From: a virus
Taxonomy: Duplodnaviria; Caudoviricetes
IMG/VR virus record: IMGVR_UViG_3300025018_000001
Length of the DNA: 64,000 bases
Reading direction: 5' to 3' (one strand)
Shown here piece by piece: positions 4,907-22,972 of the stretch. The position numbers and the translations under genes were made by a program. The first letter of the stretch is position 1. Each line of letters starts with the position of its first letter. The notes under the pieces are model-generated. The model was not told the DNA's origin. It searched no databases and was given only the letters and a program-made list of their open reading frames with translations.

Positions 4907-4935
4907 ATTATAACTCACTAGTTTGTGTTTGTCAA
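4907..4935 (-). promoter_or_regulatory. Consensus sigma70 promoter for the Rad52/Clp operon
   Basis: TTGACA-N17-TATAAT. Confidence 0.85.
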
Positions 4936-7864: not shown

Positions 7865-7936
7865 TGCCTCCAGAGGGAATCGAACCCCCGTCACACTATT
7901 TTAGAGGTAGTTGTTCCACCATTGAACTATGAAGGC
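7865..7936 (-). tRNA. Amber suppressor tRNA, anticodon CUA
   Basis: GCCTTCA/TGGAGGC acceptor, GTTC/GAAC D-stem, ACTAC-CT CTA AA-ATAGT anticodon arm (C.A mismatch at 31-39), GGGGG-TTCGATT-CCCTC T-arm, A73. Confidence 0.88.
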
Positions 7937-10707: not shown

Positions 10708-11431
10708 AAGTATAGTCCTCTATTATTAGGTCTGTATTCCATTTTAGATTAGCAAAAGCCTTGTCATGCCATTCATGACTACAACAAGTTCCCATATCTC
10801 TACCTCTATGGTTTGTTCTAGAGTAAGAAGGGAAGATTTCATACAGATTATTTTTTTTACAACAAGCAGCTATTGCCCAATCCCAACCATAAGAATTAAA
10901 ATACTTTAGTGCAAGCTCATCATTAAACCAATGGTGTTTAAATACACCCTCAATGTTATCTTTAAAAGCACACCAACCTAAGCCTGTGAATGTACCACAT
11001 CTAGTTAATAACTTACTAGGCTCACTAGGGTTACTATCATAATTAAATAAACCATAACTATTGAAGGTTAAGGGTTTATCTCTAAAAGTTCTTTCATAGT
11101 AATCAGCAAGTTTTAATGCGTCAGGTGAGATGAATATATCATCATCCATATGACAATTAAATGTACTACCTGCATTAAAAGCCATAGCAATAGCTGCAAA
11201 CTGATTTAATCTATGATTTTTTCTAGTAGTATTAATAGTAACAGTCATTGAAGCAAAGCCATAATTATTTTCTAGTACTTTTTTTATCTCGTTAGTTTTT
11301 TCAGATGGGTCAACACTTATAAAGAAATGCCAATCTTTTGGATTACATTTAGCAATGTCTAGTAAGGTTTCTTTTAAGTAGTCAGGTCTATTGTATGCAG
11401 TCATACTTATTGTTTTCATAGTAGACTCCAA
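10700..11431 (-). CDS. GT-A glycosyltransferase, GT13/GnT-I-like
   Basis: AYNRPDYL, MDDDI, FTGLGW, WDW, SRT..G mirror the GnT-I motifs. Confidence 0.75.
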   Translation of the reverse strand: MESTMKTISMTAYNRPDYLKETLLDIAKCNPKDWHFFISVDPSEKTNEIKKVLENNYGFASMTVTINTTRKNHRLNQFAAIAMAFNAGSTFNCHMDDDIFISPDALKLADYYERTFRDKPLTFNSYGLFNYDSNPSEPSKLLTRCGTFTGLGWCAFKDNIEGVFKHHWFNDELALKYFNSYGWDWAIAACCKKNNLYEIFPSYSRTNHRGRDMGTCCSHEWHDKAFANLKWNTDLIIEDYTYE

Positions 11432-11830
11432 TTATAAATATTTTCTATATTCTGGGGTTGTTATACACAAGTGCTTAAACATATACCTTGCTATGGTTGT
11501 AGATATATCTTCTACTACAAGCTGTGTAACCTCCTCACGGGACTCGAAACGACAGTTAGTATTTATCTTACCAAATATTTCTTCCCCATTAAGACTACAC
11601 TTGTATAGAATAATTTCACCTACGGATGCCCAATTTTGTGAAACTGTTACGGCAATGTCTATGACAGTGTTAGATATTTTAAATGAATCAATTGTAGATT
11701 TCTGTGCTTTTTGTACAAACTCATGATATAAACGAATACTGTCGTCTGTTGGGGCTTTATGCTCAGTTATTGTTCTAGCATAAGGTACTGCAGTTTCTCT
11801 AACTGTTCCTGTATGATAAGTGTCAAACAT
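11432..11830 (-). CDS. Hypothetical protein
   Basis: ORF track, AAGGAG RBS. Confidence 0.7.
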   Translation of the reverse strand: MFDTYHTGTVRETAVPYARTITEHKAPTDDSIRLYHEFVQKAQKSTIDSFKISNTVIDIAVTVSQNWASVGEIILYKCSLNGEEIFGKINTNCRFESREEVTQLVVEDISTTIARYMFKHLCITTPEYRKYL

Positions 11831-11862
11831 ATAATTCTCCTTTAATTCTTTAGATAATGCTT

Positions 11863-12303
11863 TTATTCACACCAGTCTTTTACTTTTGTCCCTCCATTAT
11901 ACTTAACTGCCAGGCCTTTGTCAAGTAAAATTTCAGCTAAGTTGCCTTCTGATGTAATAACATCTGCAACGATTCTAAAATACTTGCCTCGGCGTGTATT
12001 AAGTAAAGATAGGTATTTGGTATCTCTTAAAGTAACATATACAAGTTCTTTGGCTTCTATAGCTAAATGACGCTCTTTGTCACACTTACCATGTATCTCA
12101 GGTGTATCTATACCATAAACCCTTATGCTTATCTCTTTACCCAAAATGTCCGGTACATCGTCTATATTAACAGTAATAGTGTCACCATCATAATTTCTAA
12201 CCACATGTACAGCATGAAAATCTCCATACGTTTTATCTGTAGCTTGAGCGTTGGTATAGCTTAGTAGTAATATTGTTGTTAGTAAAACTAATAATCTATT
12301 CAT
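11863..12303 (-). CDS. Thermonuclease (SNase family) with signal peptide
   Basis: YDGDT, IRVYGIDTPE, KYFRIVA, GLA; hydrophobic N-terminus. Confidence 0.9.
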   Translation of the reverse strand: MNRLLVLLTTILLLSYTNAQATDKTYGDFHAVHVVRNYDGDTITVNIDDVPDILGKEISIRVYGIDTPEIHGKCDKERHLAIEAKELVYVTLRDTKYLSLLNTRRGKYFRIVADVITSEGNLAEILLDKGLAVKYNGGTKVKDWCE

Positions 12304-12310
12304 ATAAAGC

Positions 12311-12883
12311 CTATTGTAAACGTATAAAATTAGGAGTAGAAAACTTTAGATCCACTTCTCCTATGTCTAGGTGACAGTGCGTATGATGGTTATAAACAGT
12401 ACCAGTGTTTTCTGATAATCTAATACCTGTTAAGTCAAGCTTATATTTCCTAGCTACTGTTCTAAGTTCACTAATTAATACATCATTAACCCTAAAAACT
12501 GTACCTGGAATTATTTGAGATACTCTTAAACAATATATTAAAAATCTTTCAGCATCAAACACACCTCTTTTCAATTTTGTACCTGGGATATCCCACATGT
12601 CTGTGGATTGTCTTCCAGCGGTGCTGTTAGTTTCAAAAGTATAATATCCTTTATCCACTGATATAAACTGTTTATGACTAGCACCAGGATGCCTATCATC
12701 TACGTTTTTATACGTAGAAAAGTCATAGTAACAAGCAACCCTATCTTTTCTGTCTGGGAAATCAAAATATATACTAGCATCAACCAACCATAGGGCTATA
12801 AATCTATTAGCCTCAATGTATCTGTAATCTATATGTCCTATACAACTTTGATACGCCGAATCTCTACAACCTATTACTTTCAT
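12311..12883 (-). CDS. Putative zinc metallopeptidase of LAS type (M15/M74-like), possible murein hydrolase
   Basis: SHKQFISVD (H-x6-D) and HHTHCHLD (HxH). Confidence 0.45.
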   Translation of the reverse strand: MKVIGCRDSAYQSCIGHIDYRYIEANRFIALWLVDASIYFDFPDRKDRVACYYDFSTYKNVDDRHPGASHKQFISVDKGYYTFETNSTAGRQSTDMWDIPGTKLKRGVFDAERFLIYCLRVSQIIPGTVFRVNDVLISELRTVARKYKLDLTGIRLSENTGTVYNHHTHCHLDIGEVDLKFSTPNFIRLQ

Positions 12884-13212
12884 GTTCCTACCACCCTTGC
12901 AATAGTAAAATGTGGAGAACCGTATTGGTCAACAAGCATTTCGTCAGGTCCTAATATTTTCATTTTATAACGCCAACTTTTTATATTGGGGTGATCAGTA
13001 GGTAGTATTAAATGCCCTTGTTCAGGTGCCAGTGTTATCTCTTGTGTTTTTATAATCTTAGAACCATCAGGCCATTCATACCAATGTACAGTAATTTTAT
13101 TTTCTACGCCAGAAGGGTTATCCAAAACAAAGGCTACCCATTGTGGTTTATCATCCTTTATATTTGGGTCTTTTGGGCGACTTGCAAAATAAGGTATCTG
13201 AAATATTTTCAT
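12880..13212 (-). CDS. Hypothetical protein
   Basis: ORF track, AAGGAG RBS. Confidence 0.7.
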   Translation of the reverse strand: MKIFQIPYFASRPKDPNIKDDKPQWVAFVLDNPSGVENKITVHWYEWPDGSKIIKTQEITLAPEQGHLILPTDHPNIKSWRYKMKILGPDEMLVDQYGSPHFTIARVVGT

Positions 13213-13265
13213 TTATTTTCTCCTTTAAATTTTAATTAGTCTTATTATATACAAGACACTTTATT

Positions 13266-13337
13266 AGCGGATACTCGGACTCGAACCGAGATCTTAAGCT
13301 TGGAAGGCTTCAATGCTAACCATTACACCATACCCGC
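13266..13337 (-). tRNA. tRNA-Gly(TCC)
   Basis: GAAGC-CT TCC AA-GCTTA, cloverleaf. Confidence 0.95.
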
Positions 13338-13340
13338 ATT

Positions 13341-13423
13341 CGGAGAGCGTAGGATTTGAACCCACGGGGCTTTCGCCCTTCAGTTTTCAAGACTGATGTC
13401 ATAAGCCACTCGACCAGCTCTCC
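13341..13423 (-). tRNA. tRNA-Ser(TGA)
   Basis: TCAGT-CT TGA AA-ACTGA, long variable arm. Confidence 0.95.
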
Positions 13424-13430
13424 TGTTGTT

Positions 13431-13514
13431 TGGATGCGGTAGGACTCGAACCTACGAAGACCCTAAGGCCGGGAGATTTACAGTCTCCAGCAATTGCCAC
13501 TATGCGACACATCC
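13431..13514 (-). tRNA. tRNA-Tyr(GTA)
   Basis: GGAGA-CT GTA AA-TCTCC, long variable arm. Confidence 0.95.
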
Positions 13515-13521
13515 ATGTATT

Positions 13522-13595
13522 TGGTGCTAGAGGGATTTGAACCCTCGCTGCCGACGTGAAAGGCCGGTGTCCTAACCTAGCTAGACGATAGCACC
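13522..13595 (-). tRNA. tRNA-Glu(TTC)
   Basis: CCGGC-CT TTC AC-GTCGG. Confidence 0.95.
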
Positions 13596-13600
13596 ATGTG

Positions 13601-13673
13601 TTGACCCAGAGAGACTTGAACTCTCGACCTCGGAGTTAAAAGCTCCTTGCTCTACCAACTGAGCTATGGATCA
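13601..13673 (-). tRNA. tRNA-Lys(TTT)
   Basis: GGAG-CT TTT AA-CTCC, TGATCCA/TGGGTCA acceptor. Confidence 0.93.
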
Positions 13674-13679
13674 TTAATT

Positions 13680-13751
13680 TGGACTCGGATGGGATTGAAC
13701 CACCGACGCTCGCCTCTTCAGGGCGACGCTCTACGACTGAGCTACAAGTCC
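13680..13751 (-). tRNA. tRNA-Phe(GAA)
   Basis: TCGCC-CT GAA GA-GGCGA. Confidence 0.95.
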
Positions 13752-13757
13752 AGTGTT

Positions 13758-13830
13758 TAGTTCCAACTGGCATCGAACCAATGTCTCACGATTATCAGTC
13801 GTGTGCTCTAACCAACTGAGCTATGGAACC
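13758..13830 (-). tRNA. tRNA-Ile(GAT)
   Basis: CACGA-CT GAT AA-TCGTG. Confidence 0.95.
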
Positions 13831-13841
13831 ACTAAAAACTA

Positions 13842-14042
13842 TTAAGATATTAATGCTAATTGTTGTCTAATATATCTCATAAATATTATTGCCTTTTCTC
13901 TTGCGGGAAAAGTAGCCTCACCACAATCTACTATAGGCACAGTAAATATAAAATCGGTGTCTTCAACGTGATAGTGAAGATAACCAGCCCTATAGAAATC
14001 AAAACAAACGTACCTATCCTTAACTAATTCTTTAATGTTCAT
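13842..14042 (-). CDS. Small phage hypothetical protein inside the tRNA array (start revised to MNIKEL)
   Basis: AAGGAG RBS after the tRNA; the track start lies within the tRNA. Confidence 0.75.
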   Translation of the reverse strand: MNIKELVKDRYVCFDFYRAGYLHYHVEDTDFIFTVPIVDCGEATFPAREKAIIFMRYIRQQLALIS

Positions 14043-14062
14043 AAATTCTCCTTTAAGTTGTG

Positions 14063-14134
14063 TAGGTAAAGTAGGGGTTGAACCTACGACTTCTAGCATA
14101 TGAGGCTAGCGTTCTACCACTGAACTATTTACCC
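14063..14134 (-). tRNA. tRNA(CAT), elongator Met or Ile2
   Basis: CTAGC-CT CAT AT-GCTAG; lacks initiator GGG/CCC stem. Confidence 0.9.
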
Positions 14135-14140
14135 TTTTTA

Positions 14141-14182
14141 AAACAAAAAAGGCGACTTAGAGTGTTATCCCTAGTCGCCTTT
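14141..14182 (-). terminator. Intrinsic terminator directly upstream of the tRNA array (attenuator)
   Basis: GGCGACTAG-GGATAACACT-CTAAGTCGCC-TTTTTTGTTTT ending 6 nt before the first tRNA. Confidence 0.85.
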
Positions 14183-14206
14183 AGTATATATTTATACTTA
14201 GTTCAA

Positions 14207-14281
14207 CTAGACATAGCAGTACATTCCCTCAATTTTTGAGGAGCCATAAAAGAAAATCTTTTCATAGTTTGTACTAATCAT
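14207..14281 (-). promoter_or_regulatory. Attenuator leader peptide MISTNYEKIFFYGSSKIEGMYCYV-(TAG)
   Basis: Manually translated; AGGT RBS 8 nt upstream; the stop region CTAGTTG can pair with CGACTAG of the terminator 5' arm. Confidence 0.75.
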
Positions 14282-14373
14282 AGTTGTTTACCTAATTTAA
14301 GTTTATTATTACTGCTTATAATATGTATAAGCGAGATATATTATTAATACTACTCCAAGACCACCTAGCAATC

Positions 14374-14679
14374 TTACATAAAAATTACTGAAATAGGGCC
14401 AGGAGCTGCTGGTGCCAAAAAATCCACTGATACGTCCTCTATAATGGAGGGTTCAGACTCGTTAGCTGCGTCATCAATTGCTACAATAGAGAATGTATAA
14501 GTACCATCAAGTGCCGGAGCAATGTTGTTAAGTACGAACTCTATATTACCATCAGCATCAGTAACTAATTCATCCAACAAAAATAGCTTACTATCTGCAG
14601 GATCAGGTCCCCAGGATAGTTTGTATGAAACTACATCTGTTGATGTAGACGGAGCAAAAACTAATTTAACTGTATTCAT
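14374..14679 (-). CDS. Fibronectin type III/Ig-like protein
   Basis: YKLSW, GTYTFSIVAID.AANES, P.APG. Confidence 0.75.
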   Translation of the reverse strand: MNTVKLVFAPSTSTDVVSYKLSWGPDPADSKLFLLDELVTDADGNIEFVLNNIAPALDGTYTFSIVAIDDAANESEPSIIEDVSVDFLAPAAPGPISVIFM

Positions 14680-14730
14680 TATTATTCTCCTTACTATTTA
14701 TTTTTAATTATACAATATTATCTAGGTTAG

Positions 14731-15492
14731 TTAATTAGTAGTATGGCAGTTAGTACATGCTATGCGTTTTTCAGCATGTTTTTTATGGCTTTCACTTACC
14801 CAACTCTTAGAGGAGTGGCAGTTATTACATAAATTTTGCCATGGCATCTCTTTAAAACCTGTTGGATTAACTTCACCTGTAGGTGGTACTGGTGTGTTAT
14901 CCTCATCATTACTACCTATTAAATCACCAGAACCTACCCTTACATGACACTCTAAACAGCCCTGATGTACTAAATAATCTTCAGCTTTAAACCCAGGTGT
15001 AGCGTGTGGGTAATGACAAGTTTTACATTTAATTATGTCACCCTTAAGTAATACTGCTATACCAGTACCTGAAGTAATTTCATTACCACTCATAGGGTCT
15101 TTTACAAAACCCCCATTACCATCAGACACTTTACGTCCAACAGGCTGAAAATCATATTGAGAACATATAAATCTATCCGAAACTACTACAGCATCCTTAC
15201 CATTATGGCAAGGCGTACATGCAGTTATTCCTTCTCTCTTAACTCTATTACCATGGTTAACACCATGAGCATTACCTGGAGAAGGTAAAAATTCAACTAC
15301 TGGTGGCTCAGGGTCTGGGCATACTATCGGATCTGGACATATAGTTGGATCTTCACAAGGTGTACATAGTGGTGGACTATCCAGAGTAAGTGTTTGTCCC
15401 TCTTCAGCACTAAACCATACCTTATCAGCAGCACTAGCTATTGATAAACATAAAAGTGTTAATACAAAAGCGATGCCAATGATCTTCTTCAT
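14731..15492 (-). CDS. Secreted multiheme (5x CxxCH) c-type cytochrome
   Basis: Sec signal peptide MKKIIGIAFVLTLLCLSIASA; CTPCH, CKTCH, CLECH, CNNCH, CTNCH; extra His as distal ligands. Confidence 0.92.
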   Translation of the reverse strand: MKKIIGIAFVLTLLCLSIASAADKVWFSAEEGQTLTLDSPPLCTPCEDPTICPDPIVCPDPEPPVVEFLPSPGNAHGVNHGNRVKREGITACTPCHNGKDAVVVSDRFICSQYDFQPVGRKVSDGNGGFVKDPMSGNEITSGTGIAVLLKGDIIKCKTCHYPHATPGFKAEDYLVHQGCLECHVRVGSGDLIGSNDEDNTPVPPTGEVNPTGFKEMPWQNLCNNCHSSKSWVSESHKKHAEKRIACTNCHTTN

Positions 15493-15526
15493 TTTTTTTT
15501 ATCCTTTAATTTAAGTTAGTAAAACA

Positions 15527-15555
15527 ATTATACTACATTATTTAAACACTGTCAA
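15527..15555 (-). promoter_or_regulatory. Consensus sigma70 promoter of the cytochrome gene
   Basis: TTGACA-N17-TATAAT. Confidence 0.85.
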
Positions 15556-15559
15556 TAAA

Positions 15560-16441
15560 TTAAATCTGAATAAATGGTTTATTAAGGTTATCCTCACTAC
15601 AAATAAGCTGAGGAGTTTGCTCAAATCTGCGCTTTCTTAAAAGTTCTTCTGCTTTATCACGTAAAGTTTTCAAATCAATTGTTGGATTTTGTAGTAGTAA
15701 TCCTTGTACTACGTAAGATAAAGCTCCCTGATACCTATTAGTAAAGTAAGCATCAGCAGATGTTTGGTCGTCACTACAACCAGTTATAATAGAAATATTA
15801 TGTTTACTATAACTAGGTGGGCTTATAGGTATAATAGGCTCTGGTTGAAATAGGAAGTCAAAAAAGTTTTTATTTAAATCATCCTCGCCAAAAGATGATG
15901 TTGGATCAAATAAATCTTTTGTTAAAGTTGCGTCCGATACACGGGACATTAAATCTAAAGGTGTAGGAATTTGTTTTACTAACCTATCTTTAGGTATAGC
16001 AGCTCTGTCAATAGAACCACTATGACATGCATCTACAACCATAGCTATATGGTGATTATCTTTCAATTTTTTCATTAACCTGGCTATCTGGTTATCCAAA
16101 ATGTAGTTACCTTCCCAATTAAAGTCAACTGGGCACATAAGTTCATCCATAGAGTCAGGTTCATAGTTATCTTCCGAGTAATCTTGTGTAGGAATTTGTG
16201 CTCCATGACCTGAGTAGTAGAACATTTTATTCTCAGCATCATTTGTTATCAACCATTCCATTCTTTCCATTATATTATCTTTTGTAGCACGCTCATCTAA
16301 TATTAATCTTATCTGGTTTGCAGGAACTTTATAAATCTTAACTAATATATCCCGCATTATGATAACATCGTTAACACAACCGTTGAGTGGGCAATCAGGG
16401 TATTTATTAATACCTACAAGAACTGCACTAAAATTAGACAT
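15560..16441 (-). CDS. Caspase-family protease (Peptidase C14, metacaspase-like)
   Basis: VGINKY, L.GCVND, YYSGHG, VDACHSG, GCSDDQTSAD, GALS. Confidence 0.93.
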   Translation of the reverse strand: MSNFSAVLVGINKYPDCPLNGCVNDVIIMRDILVKIYKVPANQIRLILDERATKDNIMERMEWLITNDAENKMFYYSGHGAQIPTQDYSEDNYEPDSMDELMCPVDFNWEGNYILDNQIARLMKKLKDNHHIAMVVDACHSGSIDRAAIPKDRLVKQIPTPLDLMSRVSDATLTKDLFDPTSSFGEDDLNKNFFDFLFQPEPIIPISPPSYSKHNISIITGCSDDQTSADAYFTNRYQGALSYVVQGLLLQNPTIDLKTLRDKAEELLRKRRFEQTPQLICSEDNLNKPFIQI

Positions 16442-16456
16442 CTAATTTCTCCTTAT

Positions 16457-16966
16457 TTAAATATTTTTATTTCTTCTTAAACCTAATTCTTTAAACGCAC
16501 TTTTAAATCCACCTTTTCTGTAACCATTCCAAGCAACCCAGCCAAATAAACGTAGTACAAACCAAGCAGCGTCATTTAGGAAAAATCTACCATTTACATA
16601 TGTGTTTATAGCACGTATTTGTCTATCAAAAAAAGATCGTTTTTCTCTATTAAAAACTTTATTATTATTGACGTCTAGTAAATAACCATACTGATAGCCA
16701 AAGTCATGAAAAATACTACCTATAAGTAATATACCGACTGGATCTAGAATAGGCCAAAAGACTCTTGGTACTGATGCGCCATCAAAAGTAAAACCTTTTG
16801 GTATAAATAAAGTAGTATTCAACCAAGGTATATATAATGTATAGTCAACATCAATAATCCACATACGTCTACTAAAAGCATGTTTAACCTTTTTAAGCCA
16901 GGGTAGCCCACGTGTGGGTATACGTAAAGGACTAAATGAAGGCATCCTTATAGTGGTATCTATCAT
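16457..16966 (-). CDS. DUF1353-family protein
   Basis: IPKGF.FDGASVPR, FHDFGY, D. Confidence 0.85.
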   Translation of the reverse strand: MIDTTIRMPSFSPLRIPTRGLPWLKKVKHAFSRRMWIIDVDYTLYIPWLNTTLFIPKGFTFDGASVPRVFWPILDPVGILLIGSIFHDFGYQYGYLLDVNNNKVFNREKRSFFDRQIRAINTYVNGRFFLNDAAWFVLRLFGWVAWNGYRKGGFKSAFKELGLRRNKNI

Positions 16967-17148
16967 TTTATATCCCCTTTCTTAAAAGATACACTCATGT
17001 TAGTAGAAGAAATATTTCTATGTATCTGTGTATTAAATTCTTTTACATTATTTGGTGACTTGCCATGAAGCCTAAAAAGAAACATAATTGTAATAGAAGC
17101 TAAAGCAAGTACATGAAGTCCTTTACAAAAAATTACCATAATATCCAT
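16963..17148 (-). CDS. Small single-TM hypothetical protein
   Basis: ORF track, hydrophobic N-terminus. Confidence 0.55.
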   Translation of the reverse strand: MDIMVIFCKGLHVLALASITIMFLFRLHGKSPNNVKEFNTQIHRNISSTNMSVSFKKGDIK

Positions 17149-17394
17149 AGAAGTTACCTGAGTATATATTAATTATAATTAGGAGCCTAATGGCCCCTCC
17201 CTTACATCCACAAGAGTGACCCTTAATTCACCTTTTTATAATCTGATATAGATACCCAACTGTACGAAAAACCGTTTCTACTTGTAATATTTAAGTTACT
17301 ACAATAAAATAGGAAATCCAAACACCAGTTTTTTGTTAATGTGTATAAGGTTTCTAGATCAGTAATAAAGCACTGAGGGTCAAGTTTTTTCACA

Positions 17395-17736
17395 CTAATC
17401 TTCCCTAGGAGCTTTATTTCTTAAAGCTTCTTTTTTTAACTCTGTTCTTGAGTCTAAAAATCTTGTATAAAGTTTATACATAAAAAATAGAATTATACCT
17501 GATTTACCTGTACTAGTTAAAGCAGTTAAGTCAGGCATATTACTAGCATGTACTGAGGCTACAACATCTTGTACGGTTGTTGCATATTTAGCCATATCCT
17601 CTGGTGATACAATCTTAGTAACATCACCACCTAAAACTTCTTTTAGTAGATACAAACCTCCTAATAATACACCTGCTAAAGATTGTCCTTCTAAGGATTG
17701 ATAGGCTGGTTTTACATCTGGAATCTCTTTTGCCAT
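17395..17736 (-). CDS. Membrane protein (holin-like candidate)
   Basis: Two hydrophobic segments and basic C-terminus. Confidence 0.55.
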   Translation of the reverse strand: MAKEIPDVKPAYQSLEGQSLAGVLLGGLYLLKEVLGGDVTKIVSPEDMAKYATTVQDVVASVHASNMPDLTALTSTGKSGIILFFMYKLYTRFLDSRTELKKEALRNKAPRED

Positions 17737-17752
17737 AATGTGTGTCTCCTAT

Positions 17753-18298
17753 TTAAAGTACTACTACTGCGATACTTAATATTTTAATAGCTAAACCTAG
17801 TACATTGGCCACTAAAGTCAAAGTTGTATTAACTTTAGTATTTGAATTAGCATCTATTAGAATACTAATTTTTTTAGATGCCTCAACAGCTTGTCTATCG
17901 AAACTCTCAAATAACATTTTTGTATCTGCATCAAAAGCATTTTCATGTGCTTTAACTACACTACGTGCTGCAATGTAGCTATTTTTAGTCATATCCCACA
18001 TGGTACTAACGTCATACATATTAAAATTAGTTGTATCTAACCTAAGCAACATATCATACTTCATAAGTAGTAATTTTATTGTTGCGTCTACATCTATAAG
18101 TCTGTCCCACTCTAATGGTGTGAATATTTTATTTTCTTCTTGTTTAAAGTTTAATAAATTTTTAACCTGTACGTAAGAGTCACTGAGAGAAATAACTTCT
18201 AGCTGTAAAGTTGTGCTATCTATAGGAGGCTGTGCTTGCGTAGCACAACCCCCTATAAGCAAAATTGTTAAAAGTATACTAAAGAACAATTTTTTCAT
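17753..18298 (-). CDS. Lipoprotein
   Basis: Lipobox LIGGC after signal peptide; hydrophobic C-terminus. Confidence 0.75.
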   Translation of the reverse strand: MKKLFFSILLTILLIGGCATQAQPPIDSTTLQLEVISLSDSYVQVKNLLNFKQEENKIFTPLEWDRLIDVDATIKLLLMKYDMLLRLDTTNFNMYDVSTMWDMTKNSYIAARSVVKAHENAFDADTKMLFESFDRQAVEASKKISILIDANSNTKVNTTLTLVANVLGLAIKILSIAVVVL

Positions 18299-18314
18299 GT
18301 GTACTCCCGTTCAG

Positions 18315-18905
18315 TTAATCTGTAGCAACTATGTCTCCTTCTAATGAAGCGGCACCCTCTAAAGCAGCGTCACCATTATTAGTCTTATAACTATCGGTAT
18401 TAGTGGTATTATAAGAGTCATGCACACCTGCACCATTAATGCCCGTCTTAGCAACATCAGCTAAATTGTTTGATTGTACAATACCTAAAGCTATGCCACC
18501 TATTCCTAGTATTGTGCTTCCCATTTTTCTTACAGAATCTCCAACAGACTCCGGCGCCTCAATCTTATTCAAGGCTACTGTAGGTTTAGTAGCGTCGCCT
18601 AGAGTTTTTGTTGTTTGCCACTTATCTTCTAATACCATTACCATGATCGGTGCAATAACATCATCAGATGTATCCGGTGTTTTCGCAACCGCTTGCATTA
18701 CGTTGCCAGTCAAAGTCAACATTTTTTCTTCATGTTTTCGCTGGGCTTCTTCCCGCTTGGTTGTTTCTTTTTCTGCCATCAGTTGTAACGTGATGTTCTG
18801 CTCTTTCACGGCTTGGGCGTAGTCACCATAACCGATAGTACATCCTGTAAAAGACATACATAAGAGTAATGCCACTGCTGTTAAAACCAATTTGTTGATT
18901 TTCAT
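18315..18905 (-). CDS. Lipoprotein with coiled coil
   Basis: Lipobox SFTGC. Confidence 0.75.
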   Translation of the reverse strand: MKINKLVLTAVALLLCMSFTGCTIGYGDYAQAVKEQNITLQLMAEKETTKREEAQRKHEEKMLTLTGNVMQAVAKTPDTSDDVIAPIMVMVLEDKWQTTKTLGDATKPTVALNKIEAPESVGDSVRKMGSTILGIGGIALGIVQSNNLADVAKTGINGAGVHDSYNTTNTDSYKTNNGDAALEGAASLEGDIVATD

Positions 18906-18984
18906 AATTCTTGCTCTCCTAAATAAGCATTGACGATTGGACTAATTGCTCTCCTGTAATAGTGTAGTCAGTTTATTAGTAAAT

Positions 18985-19024
18985 ATAAAACCCCTGACTA
19001 ATACAAGATTAGTAGGGGTTTTAT
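18985..19024. terminator. Intrinsic, probably bidirectional terminator
   Basis: ATAAAACCCCT(G)ACTAAT-ACAAG-ATTAGTAGGGGTTTTAT. Confidence 0.85.
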
Positions 19025-20502: not shown

Positions 20503-20853
20503 TCACTCCACAAACATTTTAAACTCACCTGTGTTTTCATCTACAGCATAGAAAACCTTAGTAGCTCCTTCATAGTAGCCAATACATCTCCGCTCAATCC
20601 TAAATGATTCCTGTGACCCTGGCACTACTGATGCAGTATTACGAATAAAGTATGCAGCCTTACCAGTTAGATCCCATCTTCGTGTATCAAATAATAATGA
20701 TAGTTGTTTAATCTGTATTTTTGGTACCTCACGCCACTCGTGTGTATCTTCAGTCATTCTGCTACCGTCATACAACAGTACTTCCCAACCTCTCTGCATA
20801 ATGTTATTCCCCTTATTTCCCTTTATTATACTATAAATTACTATGTGTGTCAA
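20503..20853 (-). CDS. Hypothetical protein (true start possibly MQRG)
   Basis: ORF track. Confidence 0.65.
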   Translation of the reverse strand: MTHIVIYSIIKGNKGNNIMQRGWEVLLYDGSRMTEDTHEWREVPKIQIKQLSLLFDTRRWDLTGKAAYFIRNTASVVPGSQESFRIERRCIGYYEGATKVFYAVDENTGEFKMFVE

Positions 20854-21112: not shown

Positions 21113-22972
21113 TTAATTAGAAGCAGATGCTTCCTCTTCAGGTGGCACTGGAGGCGTATCCATAGGAGGTGCCTGTGCATAAATCTTTTCTGCCACGGGA
21201 TGAAAAGTAGCATTTAATTCTTCTACCTTCTGATTTAGTTCTTCCACAGAAGTAGTTGTTGTAAGAATCTCACGAAGTTCCTTAATTTTAGTTTCTATAG
21301 ACTCCTTTTCTTCATCAGATACTTTATCACTACTCTCCTTTAAAGTTTTCTCCATTTGATAGGCAGTGTTCTCTGCTTGATTTTTTGCTTCAATCAAGCT
21401 ACGTTTAGCCTTATCAGCCTCAGCATGTTCTGCTGCTTCATCAACCATACGAGCAATATCTTCTTTAGACAATCCTGAAGAGGACTCTATCTTAATAGAC
21501 TGCTCTTTACCTGTACCTAAATCCTTAGCAGCTACTGTTAAAATACCGTTAGCATCAATATTGAAACTAACTTCTATTTGTGGTACACCACGTGGGGCTG
21601 GGGGTATACCAACTAAATCAAACCTACCTAAAGTTTTGTTATCCTGAGCCATCTCTCGCTCCCCTTGAATAACATGTATTGACACTGCATTTTGATTATC
21701 TGCAGCAGTACTAAATACTTGCGTCCTTAACACAGGTATAGATGTGTTCTTTTCTATAACTTTAGTAGCAATACCCCCAAGAGTCTCAATACTAAATGAC
21801 AGAGCGGTCACATCAAGCAACAGAACATCTGTTGTAACACCAGCTATAATACTTGCTTGGATAGCAGCTCCCTGAGCAACAACCTCATCGGGATTAACAG
21901 ATTTATTTACTTTCTTACCGAAGAAGTCTTCAACCGCTTTCTGTATAGCAGGTATACGAGTAGAACCACCTACTAAAATTACTTCATCAATATCCTTAAT
22001 ATCAACTCCTGAGTCCCGTAATACCGTTTTACAAGGCACTAAAATTCTTTCTACTAGATGAGCTGTCATAGCGTCAAACTTAGACCTAGATAATTTCATA
22101 GTTAAATGCTTAGGGCCAGAGGCTGTAGCAGTTATAAAAGGCAGATTAATAGTAGTCTCCGAGGATGAAGATAATTCCTTCTTAGCCGATTCAGCTTCAT
22201 CTTTTAATCTCTGTAAAGCCATATTATCTTTTGACAGGTCAATGCCTTCTGATTTTTTAAACTCATCTACTAACCAGTTAACAATAATTTGGTCAAAATC
22301 TGTGCCCCCCAGAAAACTATCACCACTAGTTGCTTTAGTCTCTACAACCCCTCCACCTAACTCAAGTAAACTTACGTCATGTGTACCCGCGCCAGTGTCA
22401 ACGATTAAAACCTTTTCTTCCTTCTTGCCCTCAAAACCATAAGCTAGTGCAGCTGAAGTTGGTTCTGAAATAATACGTTTAACATCTAGTCCTGCAATTT
22501 TTCCTGCGTCCTTTGTTGCTTGCCTCTGTGCATCCGTGAAATAAGCAGGTACAGTAATAACCGCTTCTGTAACAGCTTCGCCTAAGTAATCTTCAGCGTA
22601 TTTCTTCATTTCAGCTAAAACAGCTGCTGATATCTCTACTGGAGAAAGCGTTTTACCAGCTACATCAATAAGCACCTCACCATTAGTACCTTCCTTCAAC
22701 TTAAAAGGTGCGGTTTTTGCAAAATCTTGCACTTCTTTATCTTTATAGAGTCTTCCTATAAGCCGTTTTGCTTCGTAAATAGTTCTTTCAGCATTAGTGG
22801 CTGCTTGTCGCTTAGCTGCACCGCCTACTAGTTTACCTTCATCAGTGAAAGCAACTACTGATGGAGTTGTTCTATTTCCATCACTATTTACTATGATCTT
22901 TGAAGACCCATTCTCCATAACTGATACAACCGAAAAACCGGTTCCAAGGTCAATGCCTACAATCTTTCCCAT
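21113..22972 (-). CDS. dnaK: Hsp70 chaperone DnaK
   Basis: [33 protein letters not shown]. Confidence 0.98.

Follow-up and report, generated by a model that had tools for sequence, protein, structure and literature searches.

A predicted exported pentahaem cytochrome c encoded in the genome of a groundwater jumbo phage

Introduction

Why would a bacteriophage carry a gene for an apparently exported cytochrome c with five haem-binding motifs, is the gene truly its own, and what could the protein do in an infected cell? Electron-transport auxiliary genes are well known in cyanophages, and reports of such genes in phages of sulfur and ammonia oxidisers are beginning to appear; all of these are copies of host genes. 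In contrast, the locus considered here encodes a member of a multihaem cytochrome family that is seemingly confined to phages, from aquifers and similar habitats. If these proteins indeed bind haem and carry electrons, viruses would be directly part of electron transfer in subsurface habitats, in the periplasm and possibly outside the cell, with a bearing on the cycling of iron, sulfur and carbon. The gene lies in a stretch of 64,000 nucleotides that was analysed as a whole and is referred to below as the window. A sequence-only reading of the window had proposed that the gene encodes a secreted pentahaem cytochrome c that is expressed early from its own consensus promoter, depends on the host for haem attachment, is rare among phages, and reroutes electron flow or masks a cytochrome receptor during infection.

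The Cytochrome Gene Resides in a Jumbo Phage Genome

The window comes from the genome of a groundwater jumbo phage that measures about 264 kb. Its genes include those for a family A DNA polymerase, a ribonucleotide reductase, a DnaB-like helicase, a baseplate-wedge-like protein and a Lon-like protease, together with 10 tRNA genes, one of which has a CUA anticodon. No close relative was found among GenBank phages, the polymerase of the window being at most 32% identical to that of any of them.

A cytochrome gene in such surroundings could be the product of a misassembly, in which host DNA was joined to phage DNA, or a decaying and non-functional remnant, yet nothing was seen that favours either of these, and several independent observations render them exceedingly improbable. 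ENA, JGI and Logan assemblies contain more than 20 contigs that encode the identical protein (P0001), two of them 264,359 and 156,767 bp long, and its neighbours are always the same, so the gene order is shared by differing samples and different assemblers. The locus is present in at least 10 aquifer metagenome runs and in one cold-spring run. In a comparison of contigs from four runs, one contig of 99.9 kb spans positions 11000-19000 of the window entirely, and short contigs from the three other aquifer runs tile this interval at even depth, run across the gene at both of its borders and show no differences. The GC content is uniform (0.33-0.37), and the GC3 of the cytochrome gene (0.19, against 0.19-0.25 in the neighbouring genes) fits the phage as well. 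A syntenic homologue is present in a 228-kb IMG/VR phage (L023). The reading frame is intact, and its motifs are conserved throughout the family. The many concordant contigs, the bridged borders and the uniform composition thus lead to a rejection of the chimera hypothesis, and the earlier assignment of the gene to a phage stands. An auxiliary metabolic gene (AMG) is expected to have phage genes on both sides within a bona fide phage genome, and this is the arrangement found here.

An array of eight tRNA genes (13266..14134, minus strand) lies just downstream of the cytochrome gene. Over part of this array (13400-13936) the depth is raised several-fold in all four runs compared; many short contigs continue from here into unrelated sequence, and the excess is therefore attributed to tRNA look-alikes from other organisms.

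A Precursor with Five Haem Motifs

The cytochrome coding sequence occupies positions 14731..15492 of the minus strand and encodes a precursor of 253 amino acids, position 14731 being the last base of the TAA stop codon (14733-14731). The precursor begins with a signal peptide, assigned by eye to residues 1-21 (15430..15492, minus strand) and consisting of MKK, about 15 hydrophobic residues and an ASA|AD site, a form typical of Sec signal peptides. A comparable hydrophobic leader is found in the alignment at the N-terminus of all family members. Residues 22-41 (15370..15429, minus strand) form a conserved mature N-terminal segment with the pattern D-x-V-W-F ... G-x-x-L ... P-P, which can be aligned in P0001, P0003, P0004, P0006, P0010 and L023 and for which AlphaFold2 predicts short strands with a pLDDT of about 76-84. 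This segment is followed by a Cys/Pro-rich linker (residues 42-64, 15301..15369, minus strand; translation and alignment) with cysteines at positions 43, 46, 52 and 58, which varies in length among the relatives and is missing from P0003 and P0004.

The remainder of the protein carries the haem motifs. The three-haem core (residues 65-190, 14923..15300, minus strand), which is delimited by invariant columns in an alignment of 15 members, contains the distal histidines 76 and 80, a CxxCH at 92, Cys110, a CxxCH-x-P-H at 156-163, His176 and a CxxCH at 179. An acidic, Pro-rich interdomain linker (residues 191-215, 14848..14922, minus strand), seen in the alignment and modelled by AlphaFold2 with a pLDDT below 50, connects the core to a C-terminal two-haem module (residues 216-253, 14734..14847, minus strand) with CxxCH motifs at 222 and 246 and histidines at 236 and 239. 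The five CxxCH motifs thus start at residues 92, 156, 179, 222 and 246, and of 20,000 shuffled versions of the mature sequence only 8 contained two or more such motifs. The protein has 11 histidines, five of which are the proximal ligands within CxxCH and six of which lie outside (76, 80, 163, 176, 236 and 239), making bis-His ligation possible for all five haems. A multihaem c-type cytochrome is recognised from its sequence by two or more CxxCH motifs, an export signal and a distal ligand for each haem, and all of these are present, the export signal as judged by eye. The translation bears out the anatomy first described for this gene, with its signal peptide, its linker as originally quoted (residues 43-64), five CxxCH motifs and spare histidines.

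A Perfect Promoter Precedes the Gene

The gene is preceded by a sigma-70-type promoter (15527..15555, minus strand) that a sequence scan found to match the consensus at 12 of 12 positions, with TTGACA at 15555-15550, a spacer of 17 nt and TATAAT at 15532-15527. It starts 5 nt past the stop codon of the upstream gene. A Shine-Dalgarno-like AAAGGA (15502..15507, minus strand), read from the sequence, lies 9-10 nt before the ATG. The window contains four copies of the exact TTGACA-N17-TATAAT pattern (4907-4935, 11896-11924, 15527-15555 and 20825-20853), every one of them on the minus, coding strand, where shuffled sequence would be expected to yield 0.03. The promoter noted upstream of the cytochrome gene is therefore far from a chance match and belongs to a class that this genome uses. 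The copy at 11896-11924 sits within the 3' end of an SNase-like gene. Near-consensus promoters (11/12) are also found upstream of the homologues in the phage loci L001 and L017. Early expression, as previously proposed, would be in keeping with the type of promoter, and the consensus -35 and -10 elements together with the Shine-Dalgarno site suggest a host that may use canonical sigma-70 and Shine-Dalgarno signals.

Directly downstream, and in the same orientation, lies a gene for an Ig/fn3-like protein of 101 amino acids (14374..14679, minus strand), identified as an open reading frame and by domain search. No terminator-like hairpin was found between the two genes, and they are therefore probably co-transcribed. 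The adjacency of the cytochrome and Ig-like genes recurs in the syntenic phage L023, where the Ig-like neighbour is 72% identical. An fn3 gene also neighbours the cytochrome in the locus L013, and was considered as a shared partner, but it has no detectable homology with the Ig/fn3-like gene of the window (E 0.7). Directly upstream of the cytochrome gene, a caspase-like Peptidase_C14 gene encodes 293 amino acids (15560-16441, minus strand; Pfam E 6.4e-23); it is missing from the L023 locus.

A Rare Family with a Strictly Conserved Three-Haem Core

An exhaustive HMMER search of 1.84 billion representative proteins returned only 20 matches at E below 1e-3, and word-indexed searches of 5.8 billion clusters, using both the sequence and the family profile, added two further members. 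The family has 8 loci among 2.9 million IMG/VR contigs, and tblastn of 50,697 GenBank phage records gave no match; the impression that such genes are rare in phages is thus well founded. Nor did any relative turn up when 185,579 species genomes were scanned twice with short patterns, by which absence is not proven. No description of the family was found in searches of the full-text literature.

The family alignment comprises 15 members that are 29-61% identical to the protein of the window. In all 15, the residues H76, H80, C92-x-x-C-H96, C110, G119, D132, C156-x-x-C-H160 and C179-x-x-C-H183 are invariant, and H176 is nearly so. These invariant columns define the conserved unit of the family as a three-haem core of about 125 residues together with its distal histidines. 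Such strict conservation of haem ligands over deep divergence indicates selection for haem binding, and the persistence of haem motifs and distal histidines among relatives this distant lends support to the proposal of an exported multihaem c-type cytochrome. The invariant Cys110, which lies outside the haem motifs in a C-S-Q-Y/F motif, is also kept in those members that lack linker cysteines as a possible partner.

Around this core, the family is modular. A five-haem clade (the window protein, P0002, the L017 protein, P0003 and P0004) combines the core with the acidic Pro-rich linker and the two-haem module, and conserves all five CxxCH motifs. The two-haem module is doubled in P0006, giving seven haems, and is absent from the three-haem relatives. 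It recurs, in repeated form, in P0018, a MAG-encoded multihaem cytochrome of 522 amino acids, and this is the only link of the family to a presumably cellular protein.

Comparison with curated families places the protein near several multihaem cytochromes and clearly within none of them. Its best-scoring Pfam model is Cytochrome_C7 (PF14522), at 24.0 bits against a cut-off of 24.8. Paired_CXXCH_1 reaches 21.2 against a cut-off of 20.6 with the Pfam model (PF09699), which describes a generic motif of 41 positions, and 18.2 against 25.2 with the NCBIfam model (TIGR01905). The DmsE/MtrA model (TIGR03508) gives 19.4 bits against a cut-off of 192.2, and the phage protein has five haems and not ten; the GSU2203 decahaem model (NF041028) gives 25.2 bits against 325, over the C-terminal module only; the c7 model NF043011 gives 14.3 against 120; and the CctA and TmcA models of NCBIfam score far under their cut-offs. 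No PHROG matches the cytochrome. The sole family signals come from multihaem cytochrome models, Cytochrome_C7 and Paired_CXXCH_1 matching in the three-haem core and DmsE/MtrA and GSU2203 in the two-haem module. Judged by its sequence, the cytochrome falls outside c7, DmsE/MtrA and GSU2203 and has no clear place in any other curated family tested, its two Paired_CXXCH_1 scores lying on either side of the respective cut-offs.

The family profile matches the MtrA chain 6r2q_A with an E value of 2e-6 over the CxxCH-x-P-H ... CxxCH unit; a single-sequence search of PDB sequences gave nothing significant. The nearest neighbours according to a protein language model are all c7, c3 and paired-CXXCH clusters, which serves as a lead only. 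An AlphaFold2 model built from an alignment of 15 sequences has a mean pLDDT of 67.7; it had no usable match in a Foldseek search of the PDB or among AFDB clusters, and no Z of 2 or more in a VIA-align comparison with 48,161 chains. For proteins of this class, models that lack haem are not informative.

The Relatives Are Found among Phage Genes

Every relative with a three-haem core and a readable neighbourhood is found among phage genes. There are 12 such neighbourhoods, with L001 and L017 counted separately and the locus of the window included. Some of these are jumbo phages like the one considered here. The five-haem protein P0002, with loci L001 and L017, is encoded on phage contigs of 152-236 kb that also carry Thg1, UDG, a phage metallopeptidase and tRNAs, and the three-haem protein of L023 on the 228-kb phage that is syntenic with the window. 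In each of the four jumbo-phage loci, no more than about 1.3 kb separates the cytochrome gene from phage tRNA genes. The five-haem P0003 (L012) comes from a smaller phage contig with a Tad2-like gene downstream, and the five-haem P0004 (L013) follows a tail-fibre gene and precedes membrane proteins, with a DNA polymerase fragment nearby. The contig of the seven-haem P0006 carries RecA and SbcCD-like genes. The remaining relatives have three haems: P0007 (L014) is encoded between a P22-type portal gene and the scaffold and capsid genes; the gene for P0009 (L016) has a 4-bp overlap with the end of a portal gene; P0019 is placed between a GH19 endolysin block and the portal gene of a podophage with a P22-type portal, an arrangement also found for P0024 (L030 and L031); and the L024 gene is situated between a GH108 endolysin and the integrase of a high-GC, lambda-like temperate phage.

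The tRNA region, the flanks of portal or terminase genes and of endolysins, and the place next to an integrase are typical positions for cargo genes ("morons"). The family seems, by these neighbourhoods, to be restricted so far to phage contexts, namely to jumbo phages, podophages and a temperate siphophage. Members are often found at most about 2.5 kb from endolysin or other lysis genes: a lytic-transglycosylase-like gene, recognised by eye, in L012, GH108 in L024, and GH19 in L030, L031 and the contig of P0019. This proximity may reflect a hot spot for cargo or a functional link.

Two further candidates for shared partners did not withstand scrutiny. Both the window and L001 have radical-SAM genes close to the cytochrome, but those of one are unrelated to those of the other, and lookalikes of DUF1353, recognised by eye in L012 and L013, could not be confirmed as such (BLASTP E 0.039 and 0.31; hhalign probability 2.7%). 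A DUF1353 gene does occur near the cytochrome in three contexts (window 16457-16966, minus strand; L023 7363-7866; and the contig of P0019). In the last of these, a podophage, it immediately follows a GH19 endolysin gene; the PHROGs label for this family is tail assembly chaperone.

Module Exchange at a Syntenic Locus

The L023 phage allows the cytochrome to be compared with its neighbours over a shared gene order, which runs through genes for a spermine-synthase-like protein, lipoproteins, DUF1353, the cytochrome, the Ig-like protein, tRNAs, SNase, radical SAM and a methyltransferase. The flanking proteins of the two phages are 43-88% identical, with a median near 70%; the cytochromes are 42% identical, placing the gene among the most divergent of its block, and the protein of L023 has three haems. 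A maximum-likelihood tree of the core groups the L023 protein with the seven-haem P0006 (support 99/98) and sets the five five-haem proteins together on one side of a branch (support 78/87). The window and L023 proteins are rejected as sisters by an AU test (p = 0.015), for a group that was named only once the tree was known. The two proteins nevertheless resemble one another closely in their mature N-terminal segment, at about 14 of the 20 positions of residues 22-41 as counted by eye. Divergent cytochromes within syntenic blocks, taken together with the tree, thus suggest an exchange or replacement of modules among phage cytochromes at this locus, as opposed to a single recent capture from a host.

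Similarities to Known Cytochromes

Within the family, P0002 and the proteins of L001 and L017, from 152-236-kb phages of groundwater and sediment, are 59-64% identical to the protein of the window and have the same architecture of signal peptide, Cys/Pro repeats, three-haem core, Pro-rich linker and two-haem module; their genes likewise have a promoter of their own, in this case near-consensus, and a location in a tRNA region. They differ in their flanking genes, in longer Cys-rich repeats, and in a charged N-terminal segment that takes the place of D-x-V-W-F.

Among cellular cytochromes, the MtrA/DmsE decahaem and NrfB-like pentahaem modules resemble the phage protein in being Sec-exported chains of haems that are all bis-His ligated, as is predicted for the phage protein. 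They share with it the CxxCH-x-P-H that is followed by a CxxCH some 15-20 residues further on. However, the phage protein has five haems and not ten, the similarity is limited to stretches of about 35 residues, the N-terminal segment and the linker are different, no association with a porin gene is seen, and the family is found in phages only. The c7/PpcA proteins (PF14522, NF043011), three-haem carriers of Geobacter and Desulfuromonas, share a three-haem core and two distal histidines just before the first CxxCH, and, if the phage protein is a small soluble periplasmic carrier, that property as well. The c7 proteins have a length of about 70 residues, whereas the phage core has about 125, with other spacing and an extra two-haem module. 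In its presumed function, the protein can be likened to small periplasmic multihaem carriers such as c7/PpcA, STC, NrfB and the MtrA modules.

Cytochromes c have been found in phages before. Sulfur phages carry the c-type cytochrome SoxD as an auxiliary gene (PMC8190135), and a host-like multihaem cytochrome of the NapC/NirT family is present in amoC-phages (bioRxiv 10.64898/2026.06.18.733297). Like the protein considered here, these are phage-borne c-type cytochromes, found in jumbo phages among others, and are presumed helpers that need maturation by the host. They are, in contrast, close copies of host genes that group with their host homologues, whereas the core of the present family is without a detectable cellular relative. 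By its sequences, the family looks like a lineage that has been evolving within phages. As small, modular and apparently fast-evolving proteins, its members lend themselves to work on the construction of minimal haem wires.

Electron Carrier, Envelope Effector or Catalyst

The notion that the protein, the product of a true jumbo-phage accessory gene, is a periplasmic electron carrier to which haem is attached by the host system is the one we hold with moderate confidence. According to this notion, the sigma-70 RNA polymerase of the host would transcribe the gene from its consensus promoter, Sec would export the precursor, and host cytochrome c maturation (System I or II) would attach the five haems in the periplasm, leaving a mature protein of about 230 amino acids. 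This would be a small, soluble, bis-His multihaem carrier composed of the three-haem core and the two-haem tail, and could join the periplasmic electron-transfer chain of the infected cell, such that respiration would be sustained or redirected during phage replication. From the observed gene, its motifs and promoter, its residence in phages, the conservation of its haem ligands and the restriction of its family to phage contexts, we infer export, haem loading by the host, a periplasmic location, a carrier role and a benefit to the phage. A reliance on the host for haem attachment is suggested by a search of three records of related jumbo phages (58-89% complete), which revealed no gene of the CcmC/CcmF/CcsA family, so the dependence on host maturation that had been proposed for this cytochrome is a fair expectation.

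The identity of that host is a different matter. Desulfobacterota, Geobacter and Shewanella had been offered as a clue to it, and this clue fails because the family has no detectable cellular relatives. A lead was also sought in the J-like tail protein of L024; it matched only distant prophage proteins (26-37% identity) of Brucella and Rhodobacter and was uninformative. The same lack of cellular relatives bears on the function. An AMG is expected to have a homologue in host metabolism, and no cellular relative of the core was found among 1.84 billion representative proteins or 185,579 species genomes. The protein may therefore have a role specific to phages, as an alternative to the simple reinforcement of a host pathway. 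The findings suggest that phages keep electron-carrying proteins of their own for the periplasm of the host. Counting against a plain carrier role are Cys110 and the conserved N-terminal segment, neither of which it explains.

The N-terminal segment could have its explanation in a protein that acts on the host envelope, docking on a periplasmic or outer-membrane cytochrome conduit, perhaps via this segment, and blocking or remodelling it, for instance to exclude superinfecting phages that use the conduit as a receptor. The confinement of the family to phages, with a core that has no detectable cellular homologue, would fit such an effector, as would the conserved mature N-terminus and the location beside tail-fibre, lysis or integrase genes, which is the usual place of exclusion and conversion genes; these cargo positions are, however, equally typical of metabolic morons. 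The rank of the cytochrome among the most divergent proteins of its block (42% against a median near 70%) and the presence of a different subclade at the syntenic L023 locus form a pattern typical of proteins in host-phage conflict. Five covalently bound haems would nevertheless make a costly plug, and the strict conservation of their ligands argues that redox chemistry itself is selected, so that we regard an envelope effector of this kind as quite unlikely. Cys110, in turn, is the residue from which a catalytic function could be argued, that of an enzyme that would reduce or oxidise some small substrate in the periplasm (sulfur compounds, peroxide or metals) with one haem that is ligated by Cys110 or left open. 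His/Cys-ligated haems occur in the sulfur-oxidising cytochromes TsdA, SoxA and DsrJ, and a catalytic haem is possible in the phage protein because Cys110 is invariant in 15/15, even where linker cysteines are missing as disulfide partners; the candidate axial ligands, moreover, outnumber the haems. Yet the six spare histidines are enough for bis-His ligation of five haems, no similarity to any catalytic cytochrome family rises above threshold, and there is no substrate-binding domain. Catalysis is accordingly an improbable role.

A broader proposal would unite several of these elements: the exported multihaem cytochromes would have evolved as a family in phages and would not be borrowed host genes, their modules (the three-haem core, the two-haem tail and an N-terminal docking segment) would be exchanged among phages, and the protein would wire into, or block, a periplasmic or outer-membrane electron conduit of the host. 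As a whole this is unlikely; the protein would then be a dedicated viral redox effector, possibly one that serves superinfection exclusion or the control of the energy state of the infected cell.

Other Features of the Surrounding Genome

Some neighbouring features deserve mention in their own right. The tRNA with the CUA anticodon, an amber suppressor that ARAGORN labels 'Pyl', is located at 7865-7936 of the window (minus strand) and is kept at L023 14421-14497. Most open reading frames of the window are intact under code 11, and at least one neighbouring gene (12311-12883) ends in TAG. Finally, an HSP70/MreB-like protein of 619 amino acids (21113-22972, minus strand) has a full-length match to PHROG 22485, a group of unknown function (E 2e-237), and is a conserved protein with an actin/HSP70 fold in this group of phages.
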